Source: Sphingomonadaceae bacterium (GTDB lineage: Bacteria > Chloroflexota > UBA6077). From it: DNA of 41,445 nucleotides. The stretch lies in contig JBLNDL010000012.1 of NCBI GenBank assembly GCA_050261575.1, forward strand, positions 1 through 41,445, written 5' to 3'. The notes under the pieces are model-generated. The model did not search any database. It worked only from the letters and a program-made list of their open reading frames with translations, and was not told the origin of the DNA. Position numbers and translations under genes: made by a program. This document shows, piece by piece, positions 3,882 to 33,960 of the stretch. Numbering within the stretch: the stretch's first letter is position 1; every line of letters starts with the position of its first letter.

Positions 3882-4493
3882 TTAGCGTGCCACCAGGTAG
3901 ATAACCTCTATCGCCTCGTAGACGGCTGCTACAGCGAGAACCAGCAGGACCAGACGGTAGAGGTCCCAGGTGGCGCGCAACCCGGATCGGTAGCCGGCGC
4001 TCAGCCCGATGGAGCTGTTGCGGAGTCCCGCGAGGACGGATGCCCAGAGGATGTGGACTCCGAGCATGGCCAGGATGTAGCCCTGGCCCTCCAGCAGCAG
4101 GGTGAGGGAGTGGGGCACCATGGCGCTGGCCAACTCCGGAGTGGTGGGTGCGAGGGCCACGCCCCAAATGGCTGCCCTGTAGAGGCCGATGACGACGCCG
4201 CAGTAGGGTATAACGAGGGAAGGGAGCGTGAGCGTAGCGAAGGCGCCGAAGATGGAGTTGACGAGGAAGGTCACGAGGGCTGCCGCCGGCACGTTGCCGC
4301 TCTGGTAGGCGTCCCTGGCCACGCTCAGGGGCGGGGCGCTGAACCCCTCGAGGATGGCGCGTGTCAGCGCCGCCTGGGCCTCGGGTTCGACGAAGGCGAG
4401 GAGGGTGCCCGGCAGCACGAGGCCGTAGAACGCCCCGTTCAGTGCCACGTAGGCCCGCAGGTGGCGCCGGATCAGCATTAGAGGAGCCCGCAT
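3882..4493 (-). CDS. Integral membrane protein, SpoIIM/DUF95-like
   Basis: Several TM helices, PH...LE motif and C-terminal VAAVYEA. ATG 4493 overlaps the end of the HAD gene. Confidence 0.6.
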   Translation of the reverse strand: MRAPLMLIRRHLRAYVALNGAFYGLVLPGTLLAFVEPEAQAALTRAILEGFSAPPLSVARDAYQSGNVPAAALVTFLVNSIFGAFATLTLPSLVIPYCGVVIGLYRAAIWGVALAPTTPELASAMVPHSLTLLLEGQGYILAMLGVHILWASVLAGLRNSSIGLSAGYRSGLRATWDLYRLVLLVLAVAAVYEAIEVIYLVAR

Positions 4494-5251
4494 GTCGTCC
4501 CTCCGGGGTCGAGATGAGAGGGAAGCCCGAGGAGCGGCTCCAACTCCCGCAAGTGGCGGATCTTCAGATCGTAACTGGTGCTGCTCCCGTACTCCTTGCT
4601 CTGATGATCCTGCTCCAGCATGACGCTGTAGATCCCCAGCCGCTGGGCTGCATCCAGTTCGCCGAAGCCGCCGTCGGCCACGAACACGGTCTCCTGCGGG
4701 AGGCACGCCAGCCGCCGGCAGGCCAGAAGGTAGATGGCGGGATCCGGCTTCAGCAGCCCCACCTCGTGCGAGAGGATCAGTTCGTCGAACAATCGATCGA
4801 TGCCCAGGTGGGCAATCGGGATGGCGGCGCCGTCGGAAACGTTGCTGAGAAGCCCGAGCCGGTATCCGGCCTTCCTCAACCGCTGCAGGAAGGGCACGAC
4901 GTCGGGGTAAAGGTGAACGGACTCCCGCAATCGGTTCCGCTCGATCTCTACCAGATCGGATAGAAGCGACGGATCGGGCACGAGCCCGAGGGACGCGGTC
5001 GCCGCAGCCAGATGGTCCGCAAGGCTCCCGCCCCTGCCCAGCATCCGATCGTCGACGGATCGGCGCCAGACCGCCATGAACCGCTCCAGGGAGACTCCCA
5101 TCCGCTCGGCCATTTGCCGACGCCTCGCGTTGGACTTCTCCACGTCGAGCCAGATCAACGTGTCGTAGAGGTCGAAGAGGACGGCCCCGAATCCCCTCTT
5201 GCCGCACCCGTCGCGAGCGCTCGAGCTGTCGCTGGTGTGTATGCTGCTCAT
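4478..5251 (-). CDS. HAD-superfamily hydrolase (IA)
   Basis: FDLYDTL motif I, LLSN motif II, KPDPAIY motif III and VADG motif IV. Confidence 0.85.
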   Translation of the reverse strand: MSSIHTSDSSSARDGCGKRGFGAVLFDLYDTLIWLDVEKSNARRRQMAERMGVSLERFMAVWRRSVDDRMLGRGGSLADHLAAATASLGLVPDPSLLSDLVEIERNRLRESVHLYPDVVPFLQRLRKAGYRLGLLSNVSDGAAIPIAHLGIDRLFDELILSHEVGLLKPDPAIYLLACRRLACLPQETVFVADGGFGELDAAQRLGIYSVMLEQDHQSKEYGSSTSYDLKIRHLRELEPLLGLPSHLDPGGTTCGLL

Positions 5252-5616
5252 CCGGAGTTGGAGTCCAGGACCTTCTCCAGTGCAGCCAGGATTCGCTGCA
5301 CCTTGAAGGGTTTCACGATGTAGTCACGGGCTCCCTTCTTGATCGCCGTCATGGCGATCTGCATCTCCGCCGCCGCCGTGACCATGATCACTCGGGCCTT
5401 GGGGTCCTTCCTGCGAATAGCGACCAGGGCGTTCAATCCATCCATCCGAGGCATGGTGATGTCCATGAACACCGCATCCGGCCGCTCGTCTTCGTACTTG
5501 CTCACCCCTTCCACGCCGTCGCAGGCCTCGATGACTCGGTGGCCGGCCTGTTTGAGAAGGTTGACGACGACCGGGCGAGCGACGTCGTCGTCGTCCACGA
5601 CCAGAATCTTGGGCAT
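5248..5616 (-). CDS. Single-domain CheY-like response regulator
   Basis: KILVVDDD, MDITMPRMDG (phospho-Asp), VT and KPF. ATG 5616 follows GGAGG. Confidence 0.9.
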   Translation of the reverse strand: MPKILVVDDDDVARPVVVNLLKQAGHRVIEACDGVEGVSKYEDERPDAVFMDITMPRMDGLNALVAIRRKDPKARVIMVTAAAEMQIAMTAIKKGARDYIVKPFKVQRILAALEKVLDSNSG

Positions 5617-6124
5617 CTCTACTGCCCCTCCAAGACTAATGATTCCTCTCGTCCGGGGTTGCCTCACGCCGCCGTGAAGGTCGGGCGGGGTTTGTGCCAG
5701 CCTTGGCCGAACCAGAAGCCTCCCAGCCGGGCGCTCGGTGCGCTGTTCAGCGAGTTCGATGGCTTTGGGCGATCTGACCGCGAGGCTGTGCTCGCTCGCG
5801 TCACGAGTCTGCCGACTTCCGCATGACGTAGGGGCCGGAGGCTCTGCCTGCCCGCCCAGCGGGAGGGGATGAGCCGCTGCCCCCACTTCGGAAGCGGCGC
5901 GCTGAGCGCTGCTCGCGCAACCCTTGCTTGGTCAAGAAGCCGTCAGCCAATAGGAAGAGGAGGGGAGTCTGCCGTGAAAGGAGGCTGGCGCCCGGCCGTG
6001 TCTTTCTCGCGACACCAGTATACTAGACACGCCCGGGTTCTGTAACCGGGTACTCGATGGAAAACGCCTGCCACTATGGATAGCCCTCCTCGGTAGAGAT
6101 CCCAACGCACGTCGACTTCCCAAG

Positions 6125-6194
6125 ATAGGGCGTTTCTCCTACGATTCAATAGGGCGTTCCACCTATTCAAGCTGCCGCCCCCGCTGCCTAGACT
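6125..6194 (+). promoter_or_regulatory. Putative dsrA promoter with two tandem palindromic operator sites
   Basis: ATAGG-N8-CCTAC (6125-6142) and AATAGG-N8-CCTATT (6148-6167) are 24 bp apart. The second abuts TTCAAG(6166-6171)-N17-TAGACT(6189-6194). Confidence 0.5.
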
Positions 6195-6345
6195 CCCAGT
6201 GTCGCATCGTGCGGCAGTGGGCCGAGCTCCTGGTGGCGGCGGATCGGATTGGTGCAGCCGCGAGGGCCGGCAGAGCGTGACGTGAGCGGGCGAGTGTGGC
6301 CCCGCTGGCGATCGGCCTCTGGACAAAGAAAGGAAGCGGCTGGGA

Positions 6346-7566
6346 GTGGACAGCGGCATGGAGGAAACCCGCGGCGAACGGGAAGAGGGAACCCCGCTCT
6401 GCGACCGGCTGGTTTCGGGTCCTTACCCCAGCCACGTGCGCGAACTGAGGCAGGGCAGCTACCCCATTCGGATGCTGGAGGAGGGGCTGCGCCTCAACCG
6501 TACCCAGTGGGGGGCTGGAGGCTACGTCTCTGTCCCACCTCTGCTGTCGGGCGTATCGGTCATCGGCAGCGGCCAGCCTGGCATCGCCTCCGAGACCACC
6601 TGCCTGCGTCTGTTGGGAGTGCCTGGAGGCTACCTTTCGGCCGGGCTCATGCGTGGGCTGGCCGACCTTGCCGACCGATACGGCGACGGCCACCTCCGCT
6701 GGACGACCGCCGGCAGTATCGAGTTCGGAGTTAAGCTGGAGCGGATACTGGACGCGGTGGCCGCAGCGAACGCCCTGGGGATGGACGCGGGGTCCACCGG
6801 GGACGACCTCCGCTGCATCTCTGCCTGTCCCGGGAGCTACCGGTGCGACCTCGCGCTGGTCAACGCCCCCGACATCGCCTATGCTCTCGGGCTGGCCACC
6901 ATCGACGACCAGCAGTACCCTGGGATGCCCAACAAGGTGAAGACGGCGGTCGCGGGCTGCCCCAACGACTGCGTTCGCGCCCAGATGCAGAAGGACCACG
7001 CGTTCGTGGGGGTCTTTCGGGGGGCTCCGGTGGTAGACGCCGAGCTGATGGCCAGATGGCTCCAGGGGGAGTTCGCTCCGGACGCCGCTGCGGGAACCAC
7101 TCGCCGGGTGGACCTTAGCTACTTGATCGAAAACTGCCCCGGCTCGGCAATCGAGCGCTCCGGCGACTCCGTGGCGATCGATCCCGACTCCTGCCGCCAC
7201 TGCATGCTGTGCATCAACAAGTGCCCCGCCATCCGGCCGGGCGACGATCGGGGCGTGGCATGGGTGGCCGGGGGCAAGTACGGCCACCGGGGGGCGAACG
7301 GACCGATGGTGGGCTTCGTGCTCGCGCCATTCATTCCCGCGGTGCCTCCCGGCTTCGACGAGATCGTCGACCTGTGCAAGCGGTTCCTGGACGTGTATGC
7401 CGACTATGGACGGCGCAAGGAGCGGGTGGGCGACATGCTGGTGAGGTTGGGGCTGCGGACGGTCCTGGAGTTGATGGAGTTGGAGCCCGACCCGGCAATG
7501 CTTGAGGAGCCGACCCACAGGATGTTCGTGGTGTGGCCCGATACTGGAGGGGCGCAGGAGCTGTGA
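6346..7566 (+). CDS. dsrA: Dissimilatory-type sulfite reductase alpha subunit-like protein, highly divergent
   Basis: N-terminal TPLCDRL..GPYPSHVRE (cf. TPLLDEL..GPWPSFV), siroheme-[4Fe-4S] motif CPGSYRC...GCPNDC, PNKVK (cf. PYKFK), ferredoxin CRHCMLCINKCP and C-terminal KERVGD. Alternative start at ATG 6358. Confidence 0.8.
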   Translation: MDSGMEETRGEREEGTPLCDRLVSGPYPSHVRELRQGSYPIRMLEEGLRLNRTQWGAGGYVSVPPLLSGVSVIGSGQPGIASETTCLRLLGVPGGYLSAGLMRGLADLADRYGDGHLRWTTAGSIEFGVKLERILDAVAAANALGMDAGSTGDDLRCISACPGSYRCDLALVNAPDIAYALGLATIDDQQYPGMPNKVKTAVAGCPNDCVRAQMQKDHAFVGVFRGAPVVDAELMARWLQGEFAPDAAAGTTRRVDLSYLIENCPGSAIERSGDSVAIDPDSCRHCMLCINKCPAIRPGDDRGVAWVAGGKYGHRGANGPMVGFVLAPFIPAVPPGFDEIVDLCKRFLDVYADYGRRKERVGDMLVRLGLRTVLELMELEPDPAMLEEPTHRMFVVWPDTGGAQEL

Positions 7567-8654
7567 GTGAGAGGATTCCGGCCGGCATCATGCCGGACCC
7601 CAGAGCGCAATTGCCCGACCTGCTGCTCCGCAACGAGGCGAGGTGGGTGCGCCACGAGGGGGTAAGGCCCGGCGTGTACCGCCACGTGAGCGAGAGTGGC
7701 GAGCAGTGCGTGACGGTCCGGGCCCAGATGCCTCCCAACGGCATCCTCTCCTCCGCGAGCTACAGGCGGCTGGCCGATCTGGTCGATCGCTATGCCCAGG
7801 TGGGGCGGCGCACCAGCCGGAACGCCTTCGAGCTGGTGGGGGTGGACCCGGCACAGGTGGACGCGCTGGTGCAGGAGCTGGCGGATCTGGGCTTTCCGGT
7901 CGGTGGCAGCGGCAACGCCCTGCACCAGATCAAGTCCTGCGGCGGCTTCGTGGCCTGCCAGAACGCCGCCATCGATTCCCCCTCGCTGGCCAAGGCGCTT
8001 GGCGACCGCTTCTTCGGCGACGTGGTGACCCAGGGCTATCCTGCCTGGCTGAAGGTGTCCGTCGGCGGCTGCCCCAACCAGTGCGGGGGCGGCGTGGAGG
8101 CGGATATCGGCCTCCTGGGGGTGTTCAAGGGGCTGCCCCAGGTGGACGACGCGAAGCTGGTCGAGTCGCAGTGCGACGTTCCCCTCCTCTGCTTCTGGTG
8201 CCCCACCGCGGCCATCAAGCCGAAGCCAGTGCGGGGCGGAATGTCAGTGGAGATCAACGTGGAGCGGTGCACGCGCTGCACCTCCTGCGCCAACGTTTGC
8301 CCCGCCGGGATCCAAATGAGCGGGCAGCGCGGGGTGGCTATCGCGGTGGGCGGCGTATCCAGCAACACCGGTCGGGGGCCGAGGCTGGCCCGCCTGCTCG
8401 TGCCGTTCGTTCCACTGGAGAGCCAACTGGAGTGCGAGGCTGTGCTCGACGTAGTGGGCAGGGTGATCGATCTGTGGAGGGGTGGCGCTCGCCAGGGGGA
8501 ACGGTTGGGCGATTTCGTCGCTCGCATCGGGTGGCCGGCCTTCCTGCGGCGTGTGGGAGTGGAGTTCGACTCCCATCTGATCGACAACTTCGATCCTCTG
8601 TCGGTTCGACGCAACCTGCAGATGCGGTGGGGTTTCCAGGATGGCCGGGGCTGA
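7563..8654 (+). CDS. dsrB: Dissimilatory-type sulfite reductase beta subunit-like protein, highly divergent
   Basis: W.RHE.VRPGV..HVSESG, TSRN, GFPVGG, CGGFVAC...GCPNQC, CPT, CTRCTSCANVCP and ERLGD..RIGW..F....EFDSHLID. GTG 7563 overlaps the dsrA stop (GTGA). Confidence 0.8.
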   Translation: MSERIPAGIMPDPRAQLPDLLLRNEARWVRHEGVRPGVYRHVSESGEQCVTVRAQMPPNGILSSASYRRLADLVDRYAQVGRRTSRNAFELVGVDPAQVDALVQELADLGFPVGGSGNALHQIKSCGGFVACQNAAIDSPSLAKALGDRFFGDVVTQGYPAWLKVSVGGCPNQCGGGVEADIGLLGVFKGLPQVDDAKLVESQCDVPLLCFWCPTAAIKPKPVRGGMSVEINVERCTRCTSCANVCPAGIQMSGQRGVAIAVGGVSSNTGRGPRLARLLVPFVPLESQLECEAVLDVVGRVIDLWRGGARQGERLGDFVARIGWPAFLRRVGVEFDSHLIDNFDPLSVRRNLQMRWGFQDGRG

Positions 8655-8856
8655 TGGGGTGCGCGGCCCGACTGCGCAGACGCGTGTCCAGTGCCCGCGC
8701 TGCGGGTACGTGATGTCGATCTTCGACGAGTCCTCCCTTCGGGCGAACAAGTCGGTAAGGCGCGCCTACGAGCACGCCTTGAAGAACCCTATTCTCTGCG
8801 CGGGGTGCAGAAGCTGGATCCAGCGGCCGACGATAAGGAGCGGTGGCGCCCGATGA
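8641..8856 (+). CDS. Small zinc-ribbon-like protein (2x CxxC)
   Basis: CPRC...CAGC. Overlaps the dsrB stop and the dsrN start (ATGA). Confidence 0.6.
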   Translation: MAGADGVRGPTAQTRVQCPRCGYVMSIFDESSLRANKSVRRAYEHALKNPILCAGCRSWIQRPTIRSGGAR

Positions 8857-10256
8857 ACCTCCCTCGGCTGGTGATCGCCGCCCCCCACGGCCGATCGGGC
8901 AAGACGACGGTGGCCATTGGGCTCGTCGCCGCTCTGTCGGATCGAGGATTGGTGGTGCAGCCCTTCAAGAAGGGGCCGGACTACATCGATCCCAGTTGGC
9001 TGAGCGGAGCCGCGGGGAGACCATGCCGGAACCTCGACCTCTTCATGATGGACGAGGCGGCGACCCTCGCGGCGTTCCGGCACGGCTCGACGGGGGCCGA
9101 CGTCGCCATCGTCGAGGGGGCGATGGGGCTGTACGACGGGGTGGACCTGGAGGGGACGGGCAGCACGGCGCAACTGGCGCGGCTCCTGGGTGCCCCGATC
9201 CTGTTGGTGGTGGATGCCACCCGCATGACCCGCAGCGTCGCCGCCTTGGTGGGCGGGTACCAGCGCTTCGAACCCGGGGCCGAGATCGCCGGTGTTGTGC
9301 TGAACAACGTGGCGCGCAGCCGCCACGAGGAGATGTTGGTGGCCTCCATCGAGCGGTACTGCCACATCCCCGTGCTCGGCTGCGTGCCGAAGTCGGATCT
9401 GCTCTCCATACCGGATCGGCACCTGGGTCTGGTCCCCAGGGCGGAGGACGAGCGGCTGGCCGCGGCCATGGAGCACGCCCGCCGCGTTGCCCTGGAACGG
9501 CTGGATCTGGACCGGATCCTGGAGATCGCCAGGGCGTCGCGGGAGCTTCCCGACGGCAACGGACGGGTTCAGCCAGATGCCCGATCGACCGTGCGGATCG
9601 GCGTGCTGATGGATCGGGTCTTCTCTTTCTATTATCCGGAGAACCTGGAGGCGCTGCACCGGGCCGGCGCTTCGCTGCACTACGTGGACTCCCTCTCGGA
9701 CACGACGTTGCCCGAGGTGGACGGGCTGTACATCGGGGGCGGCTTTCCCGAGCTGTTTGCGGAGCAGTTGGAGGCGAATGGCTCCCTGCGCGGGGAGATC
9801 CTCTGGAGGATAGAGGAAGGGATGCCGGTGTACGCCGAGTGTGCCGGGCTGATCTACCTGTCCCGCGGCCTGCGATGGGGAGAGCGGCGCCACCGAATGG
9901 TGGGCGCGCTGCCGTGCGAGATGGAGATGACCGCCAGACCTCAGGGACACGGCTACTCGGTGGCCGAGGTGGTGGCGGACAACCCCTTCTTTCCCAGGGG
10001 GGCGGTGCTGAAGGGCCACGAGTTCCACCACACCAGGGTCGTCTCCCTGGACAGGGCAAAGGTTGCCTTCGCCTACCGGTTGAGGAGGGGATCCGGCGTG
10101 GACTCCGACCACAACGATGGCCTGCTGGTCCGGAACGTCGTGGCGGCATACACCCACCTCCACGCCGCGGCGGCGCTCGGGTGGGCAGAGCGGTTCGTGG
10201 AGGCGGCTGACCGACATGGGATCCGGATCGCAGGAGGCGAAGGGGGACGGACGTGA
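8853..10256 (+). CDS. dsrN: Cobyrinate a,c-diamide synthase family amidotransferase, probably siroheme amidase DsrN
   Basis: SGKTT, FKKGPDYID, EGAMGLYDG, RHLGL, FSFYY, YAECAG, GHEFH and YTHLH. DsrN rather than CbiA is inferred from position after dsrAB. AAGGAG RBS. Confidence 0.75.
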   Translation: MNLPRLVIAAPHGRSGKTTVAIGLVAALSDRGLVVQPFKKGPDYIDPSWLSGAAGRPCRNLDLFMMDEAATLAAFRHGSTGADVAIVEGAMGLYDGVDLEGTGSTAQLARLLGAPILLVVDATRMTRSVAALVGGYQRFEPGAEIAGVVLNNVARSRHEEMLVASIERYCHIPVLGCVPKSDLLSIPDRHLGLVPRAEDERLAAAMEHARRVALERLDLDRILEIARASRELPDGNGRVQPDARSTVRIGVLMDRVFSFYYPENLEALHRAGASLHYVDSLSDTTLPEVDGLYIGGGFPELFAEQLEANGSLRGEILWRIEEGMPVYAECAGLIYLSRGLRWGERRHRMVGALPCEMEMTARPQGHGYSVAEVVADNPFFPRGAVLKGHEFHHTRVVSLDRAKVAFAYRLRRGSGVDSDHNDGLLVRNVVAAYTHLHAAAALGWAERFVEAADRHGIRIAGGEGGRT

Positions 10257-10465
10257 TCGAGGCCGATCGGGCTGGCTGGCGGGATCTGGGCCGCGCGCCC
10301 TGCGATTGGCTGGAGCGGCTGCAGGGCGCCTTTTCGGACCTAAACGCGTGTTTCGGTTCCTGGCGGGACGATGGAGGGGACGAGGATCAGACGGCGGGCG
10401 CCGACCCCGAGGTGGTGGCTGCCCTGGAGTGCCTGGCTTCCATCCTTCCCGACGATGAGGATTGA
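10253..10465 (+). CDS. Hypothetical 70-aa acidic protein with three Cys
   Basis: GTGA overlap with the dsrN stop and a purine-rich RBS upstream. Confidence 0.5.
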   Translation: MIEADRAGWRDLGRAPCDWLERLQGAFSDLNACFGSWRDDGGDEDQTAGADPEVVAALECLASILPDDED

Positions 10466-10479
10466 CGGAGAGGAACCCG

Positions 10480-10545
10480 ACCACGGAGGCACGGAGACGC
10501 GGAGGTTGCGAAGGGCCTTCTCCGTGCCCTTCGTGTGTCCGTGGT
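10480..10545. repeat. Intergenic imperfect inverted repeat (ACCACGGAGGCACGGAGA ... CTCCGTG..TCCGTGGT)
   Basis: Self-complementary arms with internal ~9-nt ACGGAG periodicity. Resembles dispersed intergenic hairpin repeats. Confidence 0.5.
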
Positions 10546-10576
10546 CGTATCGACTATCGGAGAGGAGATGGGCTCG

Positions 10577-11344
10577 ATGGTGAGCAACGGGGAACTTGCC
10601 GCTGTGCTGGAGTCGCGGCTGCGGCTGGACTGCGCGCCGGTGGCGGTGAAGATGGTGGCTGCCGGGGAGGATCCCCCTGAAGGCCTTCTGGAGAGGACCA
10701 AGGTATTGACGTTCTGCCAGTTCGTGGCCGCCTCGGCCGCGGGTGGCTACCGATTCTGGGTGAGCCGAAAGAACCTCGGCTGCACCAACGCCCTGGTTGC
10801 GTTCGGGATGTACGATCCCGACCGAGACGCCGGGGTGATGGACAGGGCGGTCGAGACTCACGTGGGGACCTACGCGCGCGATGCCCAGGCCGCGCGGAAG
10901 CTGATCGCCTCCAAGCCGGCCGTGCCTCCGGGACAGGTGGAGGGGGTGGCGGTTGCCCCCCTGGCCAAGGCCGCATTCGAGCCCGACGCCGTCCTGGTGA
11001 TCGTGGTGCCCTGGCAGGCCTACTTCGCGCTGGACGACTACATGTACGCCACCGGGGACGCGCCGCTGCCGCTGGAGGTGGGCACCAACAGCCTGGTGTG
11101 CGCCTTCGGGGCCGTCCGCGCCGGCCACCTGGGGAAGATCAGCCTCACCTCGGCCTGCTCCGGCGGGCGCAACTACGCGGGGTTCGAGCGCACCCAGATG
11201 TGCTTGGCCTTCCCTGGGTCCAAGCTGGAGGCTTGGCTGGAGGGGACGAAGGAGCGCTCCAGGAGGGTTCCCTACCCGGGCATGATCGCCATGCCCGCTC
11301 CGACCCCCGTGCCGCCGAAGCACATCCTGATGCCGGAGGAGTGA
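10577..11344 (+). CDS. DUF169 (COG2043) family protein
   Basis: LRLDCAPVAVK, FCQ, LGC, VAPL..A.FEPDAV, VC and SAC motifs. GAGGAG RBS 9 nt before ATG 10577. Confidence 0.75.
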   Translation: MVSNGELAAVLESRLRLDCAPVAVKMVAAGEDPPEGLLERTKVLTFCQFVAASAAGGYRFWVSRKNLGCTNALVAFGMYDPDRDAGVMDRAVETHVGTYARDAQAARKLIASKPAVPPGQVEGVAVAPLAKAAFEPDAVLVIVVPWQAYFALDDYMYATGDAPLPLEVGTNSLVCAFGAVRAGHLGKISLTSACSGGRNYAGFERTQMCLAFPGSKLEAWLEGTKERSRRVPYPGMIAMPAPTPVPPKHILMPEE

Positions 11345-11415
11345 GCCACCGTCGACCACCGCTTCGGCGCGTGCGGCAGCTCCCCGTTCCCCGCCAGTAG
11401 CGCGGGCGGCAGGGG

Positions 11416-11558: not shown

Positions 11559-11588
11559 TTGACCTTCTCCCTGGGGAGAGGGTACCAT
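11559..11588 (+). promoter_or_regulatory. Putative sigma70 promoter of rex
   Basis: TTGACC-N18-TACCAT upstream of the GGAGG RBS and GTG 11627. Confidence 0.45.
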
Positions 11589-11626: not shown

Positions 11627-12268
11627 GTGGTGGAGAGGCGCCCTAAGGTCCCGACCCCGACCCTGAACCGTCTTCCCCTCTACTACAGATACCTACTGGA
11701 GGCGCGAGAGCAGCGGCTGTCGGTGGTCTCCTCGGAGATGCTGGGGGACGCGGCGGGGGTGCCTGCTGCTCAGGTCCGGAAGGACCTGGGGTACCTGGGG
11801 GAGTTCGGCCGGCCCGGGATCGGCTACGACGTCGTGGAGATGCAGCGAAGGCTCGGGGATCTGCTCGGCCTGACCACTGAGAAAGAGGTGATCGTGGTCG
11901 GCGCGGGCCGGCTGGGAAGCGCGATAGCTGCCTACCCCGGCTTCTCCACCTACTCCCTGCGGGTTGCCGCCCTCTTCGACCGCGACCCCGCCAAGATCGG
12001 AACGAGGATCGGTGGACTCCAGGTGCTGGACGCCCGAGACCTGCCCCGCTTCGTCGAGGATCGCGGCATCCGGATGGCGATACTGGCGGTGCCGGCATCC
12101 GTTGCGCAGGATGTGGTGGACCAGTTGGTGGCGGCGGGGATCAAGGCGATCATGAACTTCGCCCCGGCGAGACTGGAAGTGCCTGCCGGCATCGTCGTAT
12201 CCAACGAGGATCTGGCGGCGCGCCTGGCGACTCTATCCTTCCGGTTGGCCCAAGCCGAGGAATCCTGA
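11627..12268 (+). CDS. rex: Redox-sensing transcriptional repressor Rex
   Basis: RLPLYYRYL, QVRKDLGYLGEFGRPGIGY, Rossmann GAGRLG and AIMNFAP. Confidence 0.95.
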   Translation: MVERRPKVPTPTLNRLPLYYRYLLEAREQRLSVVSSEMLGDAAGVPAAQVRKDLGYLGEFGRPGIGYDVVEMQRRLGDLLGLTTEKEVIVVGAGRLGSAIAAYPGFSTYSLRVAALFDRDPAKIGTRIGGLQVLDARDLPRFVEDRGIRMAILAVPASVAQDVVDQLVAAGIKAIMNFAPARLEVPAGIVVSNEDLAARLATLSFRLAQAEES

Positions 12269-15330: not shown

Positions 15331-15426
15331 GGAGGCGGACGGGCCCCGGTGGGCCTCGCGGTCTTCAAAACCGTCTGCGGGGCGGTAATCGCCGTCCCGG
15401 GTGGGTTCGACTCCCATGCGCCTCCG
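15331..15426 (+). tRNA. selC: tRNA-Sec (anticodon UCA)
   Basis: Acceptor GGAGGCG/CGCCTCC, 6-bp D stem GGGCCC/GGGCCT, anticodon loop CTTCAAA, long variable arm, T arm GTGGG-TTCGACT-CCCAT and discriminator G. CCA is not encoded. Confidence 0.95.
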
Positions 15427-15522: not shown

Positions 15523-16686
15523 TCACAGATGGCCGTTTCCGGCGGCCCGGAGCAGGTTGTCGAGCTTCGCGGCGGCCTCCTCCTGCATCGTGGGCAAGAC
15601 GTGCGAGTAGGTGTCCAGCGTGATCCCGATAGCCGAGTGTCCCAGCCTCTCGCTGACGATCTTCGGATGGACGCCCTGGGCCAGCAGCATCGTGGCGTGG
15701 CTGTGCCTCAAGTCGTGGAACCGCACATGCGGCAGCCCGGCCTTCTCCAACAGTAGCGGCCAATCGCTGCTCAGCCGGTAAGCTGCCGGTGCGCCGTGAT
15801 CGAGGGCGCATACGAGGCCGTGATCCTGGTAGGCTGGTCCGAACTGCAGGCGATGCTCTGTCTGCTGCACCCTATGCCGCCGCAGTGCCTCCACCGCGAA
15901 GCCCGGCAGCACCACCACCCGGCGGCTTCGGGCCGTCTTGGGCTCTTTGAAGGATAGCCCGGCCTTGGTCTGCTCCAGGGACCGGCACACAGACAGGGCG
16001 CCGGCGTCGAGGTCCACGTCCTGCCACCGCAACGCCAGTATCTCCCCACGGCGCATGCCGGTGGCAACGGCGAGCAGGATGGGGATGTACAGGGGTGTCC
16101 CCTTGGCCGTCTCCAGCAGCCGATCCACCTGTTCCGCCGTGAGTACCCGCATCTCCTTCCTGGCCGGCCGTGGGGGCTCTACGGCGTCGGCCGGGTTGCG
16201 CGGGATGATCTGCCACTTCACAGCTTGGCCCAACGCTTCCTTCAGGACCCTGTGATGATGCAGGACCGTGGTGGGCGAGAGGTTGCCCGGGCGCTTATCC
16301 AGCCGGCCGTTCTGGAGAGCCCTGGAGTAGTATTCCTGAACGTGGAGGGGCTGGAGCTTGGAGATCGGATAGCTCCCCAGGTTCGGGATTAGGTGCTTCC
16401 TGACGATCCCCTCGTAGCGCTCGCAGGTCTTGGCCGCGACGTTCGGCTTGGCGTAGTCGGCAAGCCACCGCTCCAGGTACTTGCCAACGGTGAGCTTGCC
16501 GGGCTCGATGTAGGTTCCGCCGGCGAGATCGGCCAGCAGCTTCGCCAGCTCCTGCTGTGCCTGCCTCTTGCCGGTGGCCGTGAGCTTGTGCCACTTCTGG
16601 CGGCGCTTGCCCGTCTCTGGATCCCGGCCAACGTCCACCACGGCCCACCAGTTGCCCTTGCCGCGTTCACGAAGATGGCCTTTCAT
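15523..16686 (-). CDS. int: Tyrosine recombinase/integrase (ICEBs1-like, with N-terminal arm-binding and SAM-like domains)
   Basis: TGMRRGEILAL (R), PKT (K), FHDLRHSHAT (HxxR), RLGH and TLDTYSH (Y). AGGAG RBS before ATG 16686. Confidence 0.95.
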   Translation of the reverse strand: MKGHLRERGKGNWWAVVDVGRDPETGKRRQKWHKLTATGKRQAQQELAKLLADLAGGTYIEPGKLTVGKYLERWLADYAKPNVAAKTCERYEGIVRKHLIPNLGSYPISKLQPLHVQEYYSRALQNGRLDKRPGNLSPTTVLHHHRVLKEALGQAVKWQIIPRNPADAVEPPRPARKEMRVLTAEQVDRLLETAKGTPLYIPILLAVATGMRRGEILALRWQDVDLDAGALSVCRSLEQTKAGLSFKEPKTARSRRVVVLPGFAVEALRRHRVQQTEHRLQFGPAYQDHGLVCALDHGAPAAYRLSSDWPLLLEKAGLPHVRFHDLRHSHATMLLAQGVHPKIVSERLGHSAIGITLDTYSHVLPTMQEEAAAKLDNLLRAAGNGHL

Positions 16687-17299
16687 CGGCTGGTTCTCCT
16701 TCCTGCTGCAACTTGCGCTGTCGCCTTGACTCGCGGATAGCCTCGGCCACGCTTGGGGTGAGGACCCCTTCTTCCTCTGCCACATCAATGCTGGTCCAGA
16801 TGGGCAGGGGCTCCGGCGGCACCACTCCCGGATGGAGCATCTTCCACTCGAAGAGACGCCATGATTGGGCTGCCCTGGGGAGATCGGAGACTTCGACGGC
16901 GGCCATCTGGCGGGCAGTGCGCAGCCGATCCTTGGGCGCCATGTCTGGAGCAGCCAGGAAGAGGCGCCAGTACCATTTTGCCGTGCGGACCGTCGGCCGA
17001 CTTTCCTCGCCAGTCATGCGGATTGCCTCAAATACTGCCGGTGCTGCCTCCCAAGGAAGCTCGGGCGTGCCGAACGACTCCGGCCAGTAGACTAGGCGAT
17101 ATTGCCGACGCTCGTGCTCGGGGGCTTCCCGTTGGATCTTCGCATAGGTGCGAACGGTCTTCTCCGATGGAGGATCGTTGCGCCCTAAGCGTTTTGCCTC
17201 CGCCTTTAGCATCGCTGTGACCGTAGTGCTTCCCCCCCCCTGCTCTGTCAGTGTCCTGATTCGGTCAATCCAGTACCCATCAATCCTCGACCTGGCCAC
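16667..17299 (-). CDS. Hypothetical protein, possible element repressor
   Basis: GGAGG RBS, overlaps the int start, has an N-terminal HTH-like PPSEKTVRTY segment and occupies the repressor position. Confidence 0.6.
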   Translation of the reverse strand: MARSRIDGYWIDRIRTLTEQGGGSTTVTAMLKAEAKRLGRNDPPSEKTVRTYAKIQREAPEHERRQYRLVYWPESFGTPELPWEAAPAVFEAIRMTGEESRPTVRTAKWYWRLFLAAPDMAPKDRLRTARQMAAVEVSDLPRAAQSWRLFEWKMLHPGVVPPEPLPIWTSIDVAEEEGVLTPSVAEAIRESRRQRKLQQEGEPADERPSS

Positions 17300-17427: not shown

Positions 17428-17634
17428 ATGGTGATAGATCGAAAGACTGTGACGGTTGAGGAGGCGGCTCGTGCTTTGGGCATCTCCAGGAATGGCGCCT
17501 ACAACGCAGCTAGGAGAGGCGAAATTCCCGCGATCCGCATCGGGAAGCGCTTCGTAGTGCCCAAGGCTGCCCTGGAGCGGCTTCTTGGCGCGCCCATCGG
17601 CGGCGGCGGCGACCGGCCAGGCGAGGCGGCGTAG
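17428..17634 (+). CDS. Excisionase-like HTH_17 protein
   Basis: TVEEAARALGISRNGAYNAARRGEIPAIRIGKRFVVP. AAGGAG RBS. Confidence 0.85.
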   Translation: MVIDRKTVTVEEAARALGISRNGAYNAARRGEIPAIRIGKRFVVPKAALERLLGAPIGGGGDRPGEAA

Positions 17635-17635
17635 G

Positions 17636-20185
17636 ATGGCGGCGCCGATCCCGCTCCCTGCCGTCGAGACGATCCCTGCGGAACTGCGTCAGTGTGCCCA
17701 GTGGGTGGCGTGGGACTTCAACGCCAAAGGCGACAAGGTTCCCATTAACTCCAGGACGGGGAAACTGGCGAGCGTGAGTGACCCCTCGACGTGGGGCAAC
17801 TTCGGGACGGCCTACCGCTATGCCCAGAAGCACAACTGCGGAATCGGGTTCGTCTTCACGGAGCAAGACCCCTACTGCGGCGTGGACCTGGACGATTGCC
17901 GCGATCCAGCGAGGGGGACCATGACGGTCGAGACCTGGGAACGCATCGCGGCGCTGGACAGCTACAGCGAGGTATCCCCGAGCGGTACCGGCGTCAAGAT
18001 CTTCCTGAAGGCCAAGCCCGACCGGAACTACAACGCAAGCGAGACGAGGGGCATTGAGGTCTACGCTTGGGGGCGGTTCTTCACGGTGACGGGCCAGCAT
18101 GTCCAGGGGACTCCTGACACCATCGAACAGCGCCAGGCCGAGGTTGACGCGTTGATTGCCGAGGTCTTCGGTTCCAACGGCCATACCGCCGCCCCGATCC
18201 CGGGCAAGATCCCCCAGGGGCAGCGGAACAGTACGCTCACAAGCCTTGCCGGCTCGTTGCGTCGGCGGGGGCTGAGTGAGGACGTGATCGAGCGGGCCCT
18301 GCTCGCGGTGAACGCGGCCCAGTGCGAGCCGCCTTTGGACGACAACGAGGTGAGGAAGATTGCCGGGAGCATTGGCCGCAAACTGGCTCCCGACCCCGCC
18401 GAGGGGGAGCTATCACGGGACTATGCCCACGCGGCGGTACTGGCCAAACTGTTCATGGACCGCTATCGGTGGGGTGCCGATCGCGGCTCCTGGATGACCT
18501 ACGACGGGCGGAGGTGGGTGCCAGCAACCGAGGAAGAGGTCACCAAGGAGGCGTCGGATGCCCTTCGGCGGGAGTATGCGGCGGCGTTGGCGGCTGCCAA
18601 GGACAAGGCCGCGATCCAGGAGCTTTCCAAGAAGGTCGCCGAGACCTGCGTCTTCGCAAGGATCCAGGGCGCGTTGAACTTCCTGAAGGGCTGGCCGGGC
18701 ATCCTAACGGCGCTCGACGAGCACAGGAGGAGCCCATGGGACCGCGACCCCTGGTTGCTGAACTGTGCCAATGGGACGCTGGATCTGCGGAACTGCACCC
18801 TGCGACCCCACGACCCCGCCGACCTGTGCACCAAGCTGGCGCCGGTGAACTACGACCCGAACGCCAGGAGCGAGCGTTGGGAAGCCCACCTGCGGACATG
18901 CCTTCCCGACCCCGAGGTGAGACGCGAGGTCCAGCGTAACGTGGGTGTCTCGCTGACTGGCGCCAACCTGGAGGAGGTCTTGCCCATCTGGCATGGCGCC
19001 GGCGGCAACGGCCGGAGCACCACGATACGAGCGATCCAGGGGTGTCTCGGGGACTACGCGCAGATGGCCGCCCCCAGGTTGCTGATTGCGGGGAAGTACG
19101 AACGGCACCCCGCCGAACTGGCCGATCTTTGCGGGGCCCGGGTTGTCTTCGCCGTGGAGATCGGCGCCACCGCGAGGCTCGATGAAGAGCGAGTCAAGAT
19201 GCTGACCGGCGGCGACACGATCAAGGGCCGCTTCATGGGGCAGAACTTCTTCGAATTCCCCCGAACCTGGACGATCACCTTGGTATGCAACCACCGCCCC
19301 ACCATTGCCGACAGCAGCCACGGCATGTGGCGGCGGGTGCGGCTGATCCCCTGGACCGCCACCGTCCCCAGGGGGCAACAACGACCCCAGGAAGAGGTGG
19401 TGCAGGAGCTCTTGGCTGATGCCCCCGCTATCCTCGCTTGGATGGTGGCGGGGCTCCGTGACTGGCAGGCCGACCACCGGTGGGTAGCCGGGGCCGTGTT
19501 GGCCGCAACCGACGAGTACCGGCGCGATCAGGACGTTCTCTCGGGGTTCCTCGCCGAATGCTGCAAGATGGGACCGCGATATGAGGTGGCGAAGGCCGAT
19601 GTGTACGACGCCTATACCAAGTGGTGCGCGACGAACGACGAAGCCCCTCTCTCCAAGCGGGAATTGACTATCAGGTTGCGAGATCGCGGCATTGGGGAGA
19701 AGAAGGCCGATAAGGGGGAGCGCCGCTACACCGGCTTTCGGCTGCTCACGGACGAGGAGAAGCAGCAGGTGGCACTAGGTGGCACATGTTCCAATAGCTC
19801 TCGCGAAAGCGAAAATTCTATAGAGGACCTGGAATCAGTGCCACCTAGTGCCACCTATCCCGAAAAGGCCGCCGAACAGCCGCCCGAGCCGCCTAACGGG
19901 CACGGAGACCCCCCGCCGGCGGGCATCCCGCAGATGATCACGCGGGCGATGGAGTCTCAACTCCGTGGCATGGGCTACTCGCAGCGACAGATCGACCGCC
20001 TCACCCCTCTTGGGGCGATGGCGATCCTTCGCGGTGACGGGCCGCCCGAGTGTGGCTGCCCGACCTGTGGCGGTACCGAGTACTGGTACCGTCCCCACCC
20101 GACGGGGATCGAGGGCACCTGGGAGTGCTCCGTGTGTGTGCCGAAGGATGCGGCCGCGCCGGAGCCGATGGAGGTGGAGCTATGA
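17636..20185 (+). CDS. Primase (AEP-like) + PriCT + D5_N + SF3 helicase, P4-family replication protein with C-terminal Zn finger
   Basis: GVDLDDC, YSEVSPSGTG, GQRNSTL, LLNCANGTLDL, Walker A GAGGNGRST, LTGGDTIKGR, WRRVRLIPW and C-terminal CPTC...WECSVC. Confidence 0.9.
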   Translation: MAAPIPLPAVETIPAELRQCAQWVAWDFNAKGDKVPINSRTGKLASVSDPSTWGNFGTAYRYAQKHNCGIGFVFTEQDPYCGVDLDDCRDPARGTMTVETWERIAALDSYSEVSPSGTGVKIFLKAKPDRNYNASETRGIEVYAWGRFFTVTGQHVQGTPDTIEQRQAEVDALIAEVFGSNGHTAAPIPGKIPQGQRNSTLTSLAGSLRRRGLSEDVIERALLAVNAAQCEPPLDDNEVRKIAGSIGRKLAPDPAEGELSRDYAHAAVLAKLFMDRYRWGADRGSWMTYDGRRWVPATEEEVTKEASDALRREYAAALAAAKDKAAIQELSKKVAETCVFARIQGALNFLKGWPGILTALDEHRRSPWDRDPWLLNCANGTLDLRNCTLRPHDPADLCTKLAPVNYDPNARSERWEAHLRTCLPDPEVRREVQRNVGVSLTGANLEEVLPIWHGAGGNGRSTTIRAIQGCLGDYAQMAAPRLLIAGKYERHPAELADLCGARVVFAVEIGATARLDEERVKMLTGGDTIKGRFMGQNFFEFPRTWTITLVCNHRPTIADSSHGMWRRVRLIPWTATVPRGQQRPQEEVVQELLADAPAILAWMVAGLRDWQADHRWVAGAVLAATDEYRRDQDVLSGFLAECCKMGPRYEVAKADVYDAYTKWCATNDEAPLSKRELTIRLRDRGIGEKKADKGERRYTGFRLLTDEEKQQVALGGTCSNSSRESENSIEDLESVPPSATYPEKAAEQPPEPPNGHGDPPPAGIPQMITRAMESQLRGMGYSQRQIDRLTPLGAMAILRGDGPPECGCPTCGGTEYWYRPHPTGIEGTWECSVCVPKDAAAPEPMEVEL
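19767..19856. repeat. Putative replication origin: inverted iteron pairs around an AT-richer core
   Basis: AGGTGGCACTAGGTGGCAC (19767-19785) and its exact reverse complement (19838-19856). Confidence 0.65.
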
Positions 20186-20652
20186 ACCCGACCGTGATCG
20201 AGTTGGTAGCCGACCTGTCGCGCCGTGGGCTGATCCTGGAGGTAGCCGGCAACAAGCTGAAGATTCGAGGGCCACGTCCTTTGCTCACACCCAACGTTCT
20301 GGAGGTTCTGCGTGAGCACAAGCCGGAGATCGTGCGGTTGCTCAGCCAGAAGGAGGGGACAGATGGACGCAACGCTGCTGTTGATGCTGCTGTGTCTGGC
20401 CCAGGCGCCCAGCCTGTGGCTCAGCCGCCCCAACCGCTAGATCCCGAGGTGGCGTGGCGCGTCGAGATCATGCGACCCCAGGTTCCCAGGACCGGCCCGA
20501 TCCCGTTCCTTGTGGCGCGAGACGTGGCGCCGCAGCCGGATTGCTGTCTCAGTTGCGGCGATCCGCTGCCCGAGGGGAGGCACTACCGGTGCGCGCCCTG
20601 CCAGCGGGCGGTGGAGATCGTTCTGAACGAAGTCAGAGAGGGGGTGAGATAG
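20182..20652 (+). CDS. Hypothetical protein, TubC_N-like N-terminus and C-terminal Zn finger
   Basis: LSRRGLILEV.GNKLKIRGP...LREHKPEI..LL and CLSC...CAPC. ATGA overlap with the primase stop. Confidence 0.65.
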   Translation: MNPTVIELVADLSRRGLILEVAGNKLKIRGPRPLLTPNVLEVLREHKPEIVRLLSQKEGTDGRNAAVDAAVSGPGAQPVAQPPQPLDPEVAWRVEIMRPQVPRTGPIPFLVARDVAPQPDCCLSCGDPLPEGRHYRCAPCQRAVEIVLNEVREGVR

Positions 20653-20858
20653 TGCCAAGAGACGGTGAGCTTCGCGAAGGGCTCCAGGCGATAGCGCATG
20701 CCATCAAGTTGCTCGGCAACGCCGACGCGGCCACCCCGATGGGCGGGCTGGAGGCGCTGGGGAAGGTGATCTTGGAGAGCAACGGGGCAATAGCTGACGC
20801 CATCAGCGAGCTGGCCGAGGCCGTCAACAATGTGGCCGACGCCATTGCTAATCGCTGA
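20652..20858 (+). CDS. Hypothetical small helical/coiled-coil protein
   Basis: GTG overlaps the previous stop, GAGGGG RBS, heptad-like AIADAISELAEAVNNVADAI. Confidence 0.55.
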   Translation: MPRDGELREGLQAIAHAIKLLGNADAATPMGGLEALGKVILESNGAIADAISELAEAVNNVADAIANR

Positions 20859-20902
20859 GAGGCGCCGGGTTAACACGGTGATAAGTGAAGGGAGAAAGCG
20901 AC

Positions 20903-21490
20903 ATGGCATTTCAGGACAAAGCGGCAGAAGTGGCCCGACTCCGGCGAGCATACGATGCCCGAGTGTCGGAGATTCGGGCAGACAAGACCCTTTCGGCGAT
21001 GGGCCAGCAGCAGTTAATCCGCAAGGCATTCGAGGAAACCAATGATGCCATTGCGAAGCTGCGCCGCGAGTATGAGGCCGAGCGGGAGCAAGAGCGGCGG
21101 GAGCTCCAGCGACGGGCGTTCGGCGTGCCCCACTTCAACCCGGCAACGCCAGCGGAGAGGGCACAGGTGGCCGAGGGCTACCGAGCGGCAATTGACCGCG
21201 CCGAGCGGGCCAAAGACCCCGCCCAAGCCTTGACCCTGTTGCAACGGTCCGACTGGACCGGCGACACGCACCTAGGGCGGGCCGTGGCCCTGGTGGCGGC
21301 TGAGAAGGGCTGGCATGGTGTTCTGACCGAGGCCGTGAACCTGGGCATGGCCGACCATGACGCGGTGAGCGAGCTTCAGGCGCACATCATGGGCGACTCG
21401 TCGCCGGCGAGGTTCAACCGGCGTGTTGCCCTGTCCGGCCCGATGCGCCCGCCAGAGCTAGACCGGCCATTACCACCGGAGGCGGCATAG
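20903..21490 (+). CDS. Hypothetical all-helical protein
   Basis: GGGAG RBS before ATG 20903, predicted coiled coil, abuts the terS-like gene. Confidence 0.65.
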   Translation: MAFQDKAAEVARLRRAYDARVSEIRADKTLSAMGQQQLIRKAFEETNDAIAKLRREYEAEREQERRELQRRAFGVPHFNPATPAERAQVAEGYRAAIDRAERAKDPAQALTLLQRSDWTGDTHLGRAVALVAAEKGWHGVLTEAVNLGMADHDAVSELQAHIMGDSSPARFNRRVALSGPMRPPELDRPLPPEAA

Positions 21491-33958: not shown

Positions 33959-33960
33959 AT

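Follow-up and report, generated by a model that had tools for sequence, protein, structure and literature searches.

How a DsrAB-type siroheme sulfite reductase operates when its usual partners are not encoded beside it is the question raised by a locus in a soil bacterium of the Chloroflexota. The locus lies on contig JBLNDL010000012.1 (C12), one of the 103 contigs that make up a 3.72-Mb assembly rated 100% complete; this contig, 41,445 nt in length, is referred to below as the window. Between positions 6346 and 11344 of its plus strand, the list of open reading frames (ORFs) and Pfam/NCBIfam assignments gave the order dsrA2, dsrB2, a gene for a small zinc-ribbon protein (ZnR), dsrN and a 70-aa ORF, followed by a DUF169 gene and then by rex. 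No dsrC, dsrD, dsrMK or dsrL was found in the window by Pfam/NCBIfam scans and inspection of the neighbouring genes. An initial annotation, made from the window alone, had read the pair as an early-branching DsrAB in a candidate undescribed sulfur-metabolism system. The reading that we favour, at a probability of roughly 0.6, is that the locus is the operon of an accessory, second DsrAB siroheme-[4Fe-4S] sulfite reductase of the lineage named basal type I, in a Chloroflexota sulfite reducer, with ZnR as a third subunit and with DsrC and a DsrM2K2 pair supplied in trans.

Both DsrA2 and DsrB2 were found to contain NIR_SIR, NIR_SIR_ferr and ferredoxin-insert domains (Pfam/NCBIfam), and tandem paralogous alpha and beta genes with an inserted ferredoxin domain place the pair in the DsrAB family in the broad sense. 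The dsrA and dsrB equivalogs were the best-matching models for the two proteins, though both scores were far under the cut-offs, and identity to the canonical subunits encoded elsewhere in the same genome was 29–36%. By domain content and best model the two are genuine but strongly divergent DsrAB, which is what had been proposed at the outset. The closest solved chains were A. fulgidus and D. vulgaris DsrA for DsrA2 (E ~4e-47) and DsrB from the same two organisms for DsrB2 (E ~3e-55), while matches to Fsr were weak (E 1e-16 to 1e-19). An identity as AsrC was rejected at 48 bits against a cut-off of 324 (TIGR02912), AsrC being a long-branch outgroup in the trees described below, and one as an assimilatory sulfite or nitrite reductase was rejected because all such models scored at or below 48.5 bits, far below their cut-offs. 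The AsrC, assimilatory and F420-dependent reductases share with the window pair the NIR_SIR superfamily and the C-X5-C...C-X3-C motif.

Sequence changes in DsrA2 had been flagged as signs of divergence and were examined by alignment to the canonical DsrA of the same genome (alignment A1). The canonical 'GGGVIGRYS' reads 'LSGVSVIGS' in DsrA2 and 'YKFKIK' reads 'NKVKTA', so that the changes are present, but they leave the catalytic residues R88, R156, K197 and K199 untouched, and these four columns are invariant across 26 aligned family members. In a HMMER alignment they correspond to positions 99, 171, 212 and 214 of chain 3mm5_A, at a constant offset of +1 from Arg98, Arg170, Lys211 and Lys213, which we take to be the sulfite ligands of the A. 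fulgidus alpha subunit. As K197 and K199 align with sulfite-binding lysines, 'KVKTA' keeps both catalytic lysines and loses the third lysine only. The N-terminal part of DsrA2 is indeed shorter than that of the canonical protein, by 7 and 3 residues; owing to a 12-residue insert in the ferredoxin domain, however, the protein as a whole is no shorter (406 against 395 aa). The cysteines of the siroheme-coupled cluster, C161, C167, C205 and C209, are invariant across the same 26 proteins, and those of the ferredoxin insert (264, 283, 286, 289 and 293) are kept, C264, C283, C286 and C289 being invariant as well. DsrA2B2 would accordingly be expected, judged on these residues, to be active on sulfite or a close oxyanion.

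In DsrB2 the siroheme-cluster motif is C136-X5-C142 with C180-X3-C184. Comparison of 64 DsrB rows revealed C-X5-C...GC-X3-C in every sequence from type I, type II, Acidobacteria and Bathyarchaeia, whereas 7 canonical DsrB carry the reductive-bacterial T-X5-C...CC-X3-C, which DsrB2 lacks. A further arrangement was observed in the DsrB of a Nitrospirota / Thermodesulfovibrionia / Hydrothermarchaeota / Desulfatibia group (loci L050–L053, L058, L061–L063 and L069), which reads C-X5-C...(G/A)C(A/S)N-IEEAL and misses the last cysteine of C-X3-C; the siroheme-coupled cluster of this Nitrospirota-type DsrB may be bound differently or lost.

The affiliation of the pair was investigated further in paralogue-rooted trees of DsrA and DsrB with AsrC as outgroup, calculated in a quick version of 89 rows and, after 32 near-redundant rows had been dropped, in a careful version of 57 rows under LG+C20 with posterior mean site frequencies (PMSF). 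In the 57-row tree the window DsrA fell in a Chloroflexota clade with support of 100/100. Second-copy DsrA of Moorella, Neomoorella, Thermanaeromonas and Symbiobacteriaceae formed a clade at 100/99 that was joined with the Chloroflexota clade at 100/98, and the window DsrB, together with that of locus L011 (100/100), joined the Firmicutes second copies at 99/97. The quick tree agreed on the union with the Moorella second copies. Under paralogue rooting, the most basal position was clear for DsrB, all others forming a clade at 100/97, but weak for DsrA, for which the corresponding clade had only 76/53. The canonical subunits of the genome were placed inside the reductive bacterial clade, which was recovered at 100/100 without the window rows. 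A tree constrained to unite the Chloroflexota type I DsrA with reductive bacterial DsrA was worse by 54.1 log-likelihood units (approximately unbiased (AU) test, p-AU 3.8e-6, for a reductive bacterial group that was named after the tree was seen). An assignment to the reductive bacterial type was rejected on the strength of this test, the position outside the 100/100 clade and the differing DsrB motif. The trees place the window pair in basal type I DsrAB, the Moorella second-copy lineage, and the claim that it branches early, outside the ordinary reductive clade and apart from AsrC and assimilatory reductases, was upheld. A single Acidobacteriota sequence fell between types I and II, matching the published picture.

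A word-indexed search for relatives returned 53 proteins at E ≤1e-10 among 7,999 scored candidates. When 1.84 billion representatives were searched exhaustively, no more than 14 proteins reached E ≤1e-30. DsrA2 was 66–85% identical to proteins from Chloroflexota metagenomes and 47–51% to those of Clostridia and Thermanaeromonas, and relatives of 466–483 residues from Anaerolineae, NC10 and Planctomycetota followed at 41–45%. A scan of species genomes gave 59 loci, including those of Moorella and Neomoorella, known carriers of a second dsrAB. According to the main text of PMC6018805, DsrAB fall into four main clusters, the most basal of which is formed by the Moorella second copies; that of PMC10504309 places the Moorella second copy beside dsrC and dsrN and describes the system as not yet investigated. 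In the main text of PMC12948486 (February 2026) three sequences from Chloroflexota and eight from Firmicutes are named 'basal type I DsrAB' and are the most basal in both halves of a paralogue-rooted tree. As that paper already names it, the lineage is not new, and the expectation of an undescribed system fails in this respect.

The search was extended to the remaining contigs. On C14 there is a canonical dsrA, which at 570 bits exceeds its cut-off, followed by dsrB, a 64-aa gene in the dsrD position, dsrT (RsbRD_N, 66 bits) and dsrM, K, J, O and P, all five above model cut-offs. Further along the same contig lies the single dsrC of the genome, with a two-cysteine arm at its end, adjoined by a DsrK2/DsrM2 pair. 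The canonical DsrA is 66–86% identical to reductive-type proteins of Chloroflexota and Firmicutes, for example that of Carboxydothermus hydrogenoformans. The 64-aa gene gave weak winged-helix matches and no PF08679, so that it was not accepted as DsrD and is called DsrD-like by position only. The window pair is consequently a second copy, and the absence of dsrC, dsrD and dsrMK, though true of the window, does not hold for the genome; the module is an accessory copy beside a full Dsr set and not a stand-alone system. No match to sat was found in the genome, and for aprA there were just two, both weak, at 28 and 24 bits where the cut-off is 642; given the rated completeness of 100%, the organism reads as a sulfite reducer and not as a sulfate reducer.

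Co-occurrence with a canonical copy was observed in every type I carrier checked. A canonical copy was found in all six type I genomes tested by hidden Markov model (G000, G036, G037, G039, G042 and G043; G040 and G041 are the same genomes as G036 and G037) and, by synteny, at 6 of 7 further type I loci. Within the taxonomic order of the organism, dsrA occurs in 5 of 39 genomes, all of one family; all 5 have the canonical copy and 3 the second copy, which is missing in G035 (64% complete) and G038 (97% complete). The canonical dsrA of G035 (C3:8049–9206) and G036 (C243:4074–5228) matches with 2 in-frame TGA codons, which may stand for selenocysteine or result from frameshifts or assembly errors; the dsrA of the window's genome is free of them.

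The Moorella second copy resembles the window pair in being its sister in both subunit trees, at 47–50% identity, in having dsrN directly downstream, in co-occurring with canonical reductive dsrAB and in the C-X5-C...C-X3-C motif of DsrB. In Firmicutes type I loci the order is DsrM2K2-like genes, dsrC, a short dsrC-like gene, dsrA2, dsrB2 and dsrN, whereas in the window neither dsrC nor the one-cysteine dsrC-like gene stands next to dsrA2, dsrB2 is separated from dsrN by ZnR, and downstream of dsrN come DUF169 and rex. The window subclade differs further in the 12-residue ferredoxin-domain insert and in 'VIGS' for 'VR.S'. The DsrK and DsrM that flank Firmicutes type I dsrAB found their best matches in this genome in DsrK2/DsrM2 of contig C14, at 41–54% identity and 348–611 bits, as against 32–34% and 200–233 bits between the flanking DsrK and the canonical DsrK. 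With DsrC and DsrM2K2 on C14, the genome possesses the components of the module known from Firmicutes type I loci, but split over two contigs. By analogy with these loci, DsrA2B2 would draw on the single DsrC and the DsrM2K2 pair from C14, and we infer that the split parts work together. The short DsrC-like proteins upstream of dsrA2 (L014 7735–7992, L016, L013, L015, L019, L020 and L055) end in ...GLPMPKEC, have the terminal cysteine only and adjoin a normal two-cysteine DsrC; the DsrC of Bathyarchaeia locus L044 likewise has one cysteine only.

The apparently new component of the operon is ZnR, a protein for which no Pfam or NCBIfam family scored above threshold. It is present in 5/5 Chloroflexota-clade loci that reach its position, and in the same 5/5 the order dsrB2, ZnR, dsrN is kept (the clade comprises the window, L011, L012 and L070–L073). 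Alignment of DsrA revealed that the 466–483-residue forms carry an N-terminal CxxC...CxxC domain, and a fused ribbon of this kind was found in 29 'basal type II' loci (30 ORFs) and in 12 database proteins; in Rokubacteria locus L021 both tandem DsrA copies have it. A profile built from the 30 fused domains only was run over 75,368 six-frame ORFs of all loci and the whole genome. It retrieved the window ZnR at E 3.9e-4 as its only match in the genome, and free ORFs after dsrB in L044 (Bathyarchaeia, 2.9e-16), L019 (4.2e-8), L011 (3.7e-5), L073 (1.4e-4), L071 (1.5e-4) and L070 (4.6e-3). The same profile gave no match in the other Firmicutes loci, in Nitrospirota-type loci or in canonical operons, and four archaeal-type DsrA proteins showed no N-terminal ribbon domain. 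The profile matches indicate that ZnR is homologous to the fused N-terminal DsrA domain of basal type II.

An AlphaFold2 model of ZnR from a 7-row alignment contained strands, a helix at 30–48 and further strands (mean predicted local distance difference test (pLDDT) 82.6). Foldseek returned no match to this model in the PDB at E ≤0.001, the weak top rows being ribosomal zinc-ribbon and RING proteins, and the ESM Atlas gave only unnamed small proteins, with one cluster at 24% Zn_ribbon_9. Rubredoxin was rejected for want of a family match or of a rubredoxin among the Foldseek rows, and DsrD because PF08679 was not matched at E up to 1 and the modelled fold combines a zinc ribbon and a helix. 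A three-chain model of DsrA2, DsrB2 and ZnR (alignments of 26, 13 and 7 rows) reached ipSAE values of 0.85, 0.84 and 0.86 against 0.00, 0.01 and 0.00 for three controls, with at least 96% of contacts common to the runs and a partner pLDDT of at least 75; the mark used was reached by 116/157 solved complexes and 2/215 mismatched pairs, a calibration that holds only roughly here. Modelled contacts involve ZnR residues 24–27 and 36–61 and, on DsrA2, the stretch 58–72 (GGYVSVPPLLSGVSV) that had been flagged in the initial annotation, residues 187–194 (DDQQYPGM) just before K197/K199, and residues 83, 131, 153, 352 and 357; on DsrB2 they involve the ferredoxin insert at 212–213 and 258. ZnR is thus predicted by the model to dock on DsrA2 beside the loops with substrate-binding residues, as a third subunit would. 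Gene fusion, conserved position and complex model together make a bound ZnR subunit the most likely reading.

A rival reading, which follows the initial annotation in allowing for other chemistry or another mode of product release, is that the window encodes a siroheme enzyme that is complete in itself and does not depend on DsrC, with for example direct six-electron reduction or release of thiosulfate or trithionate, in which ZnR and DUF169 take over from the usual partners. The operon is without dsrC, dsrMK and dsrD, the Chloroflexota subclade has lost the DsrC-like gene of Firmicutes type I loci, ZnR is predicted next to the substrate-loop region of DsrA2, and DsrB2 has the assimilatory-style C-X5-C...C-X3-C, all of which fit this alternative. 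We nevertheless regard it as unlikely. The lineages in which the same ribbon is fused to DsrA have a two-cysteine dsrC and dsrMK directly downstream, so that ZnR coexists with DsrC and is no substitute for it; every early-branching DsrB in the comparison has the cysteine pattern, also where dsrC-dsrMK is present; DsrC and DsrM2K2 are retained in the genome; type I was not seen without the canonical Dsr set in carriers where this is checkable; and DUF169 is missing in 1 of 4 relatives.

Comparison with other Dsr systems bears on what ZnR might do. Canonical DsrAB-DsrC (D. vulgaris 2V4J, A. fulgidus 3MM5) has the same two-subunit architecture with ferredoxin inserts, the same DsrA siroheme-cluster cysteines and the same sulfite-binding Arg/Arg/Lys/Lys, and differs in that the window has no DsrD, the place behind dsrB being occupied by a zinc ribbon. 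Basal type II (Rokubacteria (Methylomirabilota), Verrucomicrobiota, Planctomycetota and Anaerolineae) shares the DsrB cysteine pattern and a homologous ribbon, which is fused to the DsrA N-terminus via a linker of ~30–40 residues and not free as in the window; its operons continue with two-cysteine dsrC and dsrMK, and its DsrA is 37–45% identical to that of the window. Rokubacteria loci L021 (6763–11737) and L026 (6–3434) have two tandem dsrAB pairs before dsrC-dsrMK. DsrD is a winged-helix protein without a metal site. It is not homologous to ZnR, which is modelled beside the DsrA substrate loops; like ZnR it is small, has its gene immediately behind dsrB and is fused to a Dsr subunit in some organisms, and among the loci examined its presence is complementary to that of ZnR. 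According to PMC8794893, DsrD binds and activates DsrAB, probably far from the substrate pocket as suggested there, and a DsrB-DsrD fusion occurs in Bilophila, while PMC10591310 describes early-diverging DsrAB as consistently without dsrD. From the dsrD slot and the DsrA fusion in DsrD-less lineages it may be conjectured by analogy that the role of ZnR resembles that of DsrD.

A wider interpretation joins these points: ZnR would be an ancient third subunit of a primordial, deep-branching DsrAB, lying over the substrate/DsrC entrance of DsrA, fused in type II but free in type I Chloroflexota, in Symbiobacteriaceae and in one lineage of Bathyarchaeia. The appearance of DsrD and the change of the DsrB cysteine motif would have coincided with its loss, and in the Chloroflexota lineage, from which the dedicated DsrC-like partner has also gone, it would let the enzyme work without DsrC. 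Taken whole, this is speculative and in our estimate rather improbable. Literature searches found no mention of a zinc ribbon with DsrA or DsrAB. 'Zinc' and 'fusion' are absent from the main texts of PMC6018805, PMC10504309 and PMC12948486, whose supplements might show longer DsrA; 'N-terminal' is absent from the main texts of PMC10504309 and PMC12948486, and in that of PMC6018805 'N-terminal' and 'fused' refer only to DsrT-DsrM. The ribbon module on DsrA, free here and fused in type II, is apparently a new part, and neither the shared classical cysteine motif of early DsrB nor the location of the genome's only DsrN in this operon was seen discussed in the literature searched.

The substrate is a separate matter, as siroheme reductases as a class also reduce nitrite. 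The main substrate could on this account be another oxyanion such as nitrite, in a detoxification or redox-sink role linked to Rex and DUF169. DUF169 follows dsrN in 3 of the 4 Chloroflexota-clade loci that are long enough (the window, L011 and L070), and rex follows in all 3 loci that reach that far, an adjacency kept in L070 and L071. In L071 the place of DUF169 is taken by hemA and an oxidoreductase gene; this hemA-like gene (4423–5700, minus strand; glutamyl-tRNA reductase by its N-terminal sequence) is a tetrapyrrole-synthesis neighbour between dsrN and rex. Control of the operon by Rex was rejected, as TGTGA-N6-TCACA, the standard Rex box, does not occur at ≤1 mismatch anywhere in the window, and rex, preceded by a promoter-like site, is probably transcribed as a unit of its own. 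All four residues that bind sulfite in DsrA are retained. Transposon hits in rex, a DUF169 gene and the adjacent TauE-like permease gene of D. alaskensis G20 raised nitrate fitness, according to PMC4001038, which counts in favour of this reading and is a lead on DUF169, yet the mutants gained in nitrate and not in nitrite. Linkage to dsrN is moreover typical of Dsr (main text of PMC10504309). With these points against it, nitrite as the main substrate appears quite improbable.

The dsrN product scored 472 bits against TIGR00379 and combines the CobB/CbiA architecture with dsrAB linkage. It is 55–58% identical to amidases beside dsrAB in Moorella-type and Rokubacteria loci and 40% identical to the other CobB of the genome, which lies on contig C71 without dsr neighbours and is the better match to the CobB equivalog, at 526 bits compared with 466. 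It is a candidate siroheme a,c-diamide synthase of the CobB/CbiA family, encoded downstream of dsrB2 in 9/9 Firmicutes type I loci that extend far enough, and is the only dsr-linked amidase in the genome. The siroheme of DsrA2B2 would be amidated by it, and it would be the only DsrN available to the canonical enzyme too. This opens a further explanation, that the pair is a decaying or non-catalytic paralogue kept only because the canonical enzyme needs the dsrN of the operon. The near-complete relative G038 is without the second copy, and the dsrB2 match of L011 (3667–4778) consists of two overlapping pieces.

Substitution rates speak against decay. By the Nei-Gojobori method, the ratio of nonsynonymous to synonymous substitution (dN/dS) against three relatives was 0.12–0.16 for dsrA2, 0.18–0.19 for dsrB2, 0.12–0.18 for dsrN and 0.17–0.20 for DUF169, figures that are rough because dS is near 1 throughout. 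For ZnR the comparison with L071 gave 0.27 (nonsynonymous proportion pN 0.20, synonymous pS 0.52), while dS was saturated in the other two, with pN 0.09–0.20 against pS 0.76–0.77. At dN/dS of 0.12–0.27, dsrA2, dsrB2, ZnR, dsrN and DUF169 are under purifying selection as estimated from these alignments. The values for dsrA2 and dsrB2 come from three independent comparisons, all cofactor cysteines and substrate residues stay the same throughout the family, and the clade has great age and members in two phyla, so that a decaying paralogue is a far-fetched explanation. The 70-aa ORF gave 0.49; it matched no family and is recognisable only in L070 (45% over 51 residues), L071 being without it and L011 having only 76 nt between dsrN and DUF169, and it is doubtful as a real gene. 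Stop codons were also noted in L055 (9145–10221) and L035 (1903–2958); together with the split L011 copy these may be frameshifts, sequencing errors in metagenome-assembled genomes or broken genes.

Several points weigh against an accessory basal type I sulfite reductase with ZnR as subunit and partners in trans. DsrA2 reached 227 bits on TIGR02064 (dsrA) against a cut-off of 392.85 and DsrB2 271 bits on TIGR02066 (dsrB) against 341.5, both below the equivalog threshold, and one arginine of the canonical 'GGVIGRY' is a glycine in DsrA2 of the Chloroflexota subclade. The trees hold no oxidative-type sequences and represent the archaeal type by DsrA only (Thermocladium, Pyrobaculum and Thermoplasmatota). 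The one-cysteine dsrC-like gene that precedes dsrA2 in Firmicutes (dsrC-like 2) was not found in the genome; with this dedicated gene missing, use of DsrC in trans is an assumption. The score of the complex is the model's own confidence, from small alignments and a three-chain job unlike those of the calibration. Absence of ZnR from 8 of 9 Firmicutes type I loci, Symbiobacteriaceae L019 alone having it, means that ZnR is not obligatory for the lineage. As for activity, the main text of PMC12948486 describes experimental evidence of sulfite reduction by basal type I as lacking, and that of PMC10504309 reports detection of both Moorella copies in the proteome and nothing further.

The locus matters in that basal type I DsrAB roots the DsrAB trees and figures in arguments on the start of sulfite respiration. 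The window offers a compact and intact example, with DsrA2, DsrB2, ZnR and DsrN together and DsrC and DsrM2K2 in trans, and it leads to a claim open to experiment, namely that a zinc-ribbon module on DsrA belongs to early-diverging DsrAB. Should ZnR prove to be a genuine subunit, heterologous expression and structural work on early DsrAB would need to include it, and it would provide a new marker for early-diverging Dsr systems without DsrD.

The gene order is as initially described, and successive genes of the operon overlap by 34, 14, 4 and 4 nt, which fits the label 'translationally coupled' given to them. Coordinates of these and other features of the window are listed in the table.

Table. 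Features of the operon and its surroundings on contig C12.
Feature	Position	Strand	Description
conserved promoter region	6126–6195	+	two direct repeats, -35-like and -10-like elements
dsrA2	6346–7566	+	406 aa, alternative ATG at 6358; putative alpha subunit of basal type I DsrAB-type siroheme sulfite reductase
dsrB2	7533–8654	+	373 aa, putative beta subunit; 34-nt overlap with dsrA2
ZnR	8641–8856	+	71 aa, predicted four-cysteine zinc ribbon (C18, C21, C53, C56); 14-nt overlap with dsrB2
dsrN	8853–10256	+	467 aa from likely ATG at 8853, ORF opens at 8691; 4-nt ATGA overlap with ZnR
70-aa acidic ORF	10253–10465	+	doubtful gene; 4-nt GTGA overlap with dsrN
DUF169 (PF02596) protein	10535–11344	+	Pfam 141.7 bits; start possibly at 10577
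promoter-like site	11559–11588		before rex
rex	11627–12268	+	redox-sensing repressor, NF003995 248.7 bits; 283 nt after DUF169
tRNA-Sec	15331–15425		adjoins integrase
tyrosine integrase	15523–16788	-
D5-type primase and terminase pieces	17585–23359
FAD_oxidored (PF12831) genes	27719–29152 and 30496–31941	-	paralogous, 338 and 373 bits
ApbE flavin transferase and ferric-reductase-like membrane protein	33263–34887

Upstream of dsrA2, direct repeats of the form TAGGGCGTTyCnCCTA start at 6126 and 6150, ~150–220 nt before the gene, and are followed by a -35-like TTCAAG, a 17-nt spacer and a -10-like TAGACT (~6189–6194). Alignment of five Chloroflexota-clade loci showed this block to be nearly the only invariant upstream stretch; a simple sigma-70 scan did not pick it. 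The repeat core occurs twice here and once, as a single copy, at a flagellin/methyltransferase spacer elsewhere in the genome. As that copy is single and its spacer unrelated, a regulon was not accepted. A riboswitch or leader RNA was likewise rejected, since Rfam at the gathering threshold gave only the tRNA-Sec. No RNA run was listed among the sequencing runs that contain 6100–11400, the DNA runs being labelled soil and sludge metagenome.

The DUF169 protein has no solved relative by sequence, and the Atlas gave DUF169 clusters only, in a record that begins at residue 15. Upstream of the operon lie genes unrelated to sulfur, for an ADP-forming acyl-CoA synthetase, NfeD, a HAD hydrolase and a divergent CheY-like protein, the last two directly adjacent and without dsrC or a dsrC-like gene. 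Downstream, a thioredoxin-domain protein is followed by the tRNA-Sec, the integrase and phage-like genes, a region with the appearance of a prophage or island that has integrated at tRNA-Sec. Since synteny with NfeD/HAD on one side and Rex/thioredoxin on the other is kept in relatives, the operon is not part of this island. Farther along the window two paralogous FAD_oxidored genes stand near each other, and beyond them are genes for an ApbE flavin transferase and for a membrane protein resembling ferric reductases.

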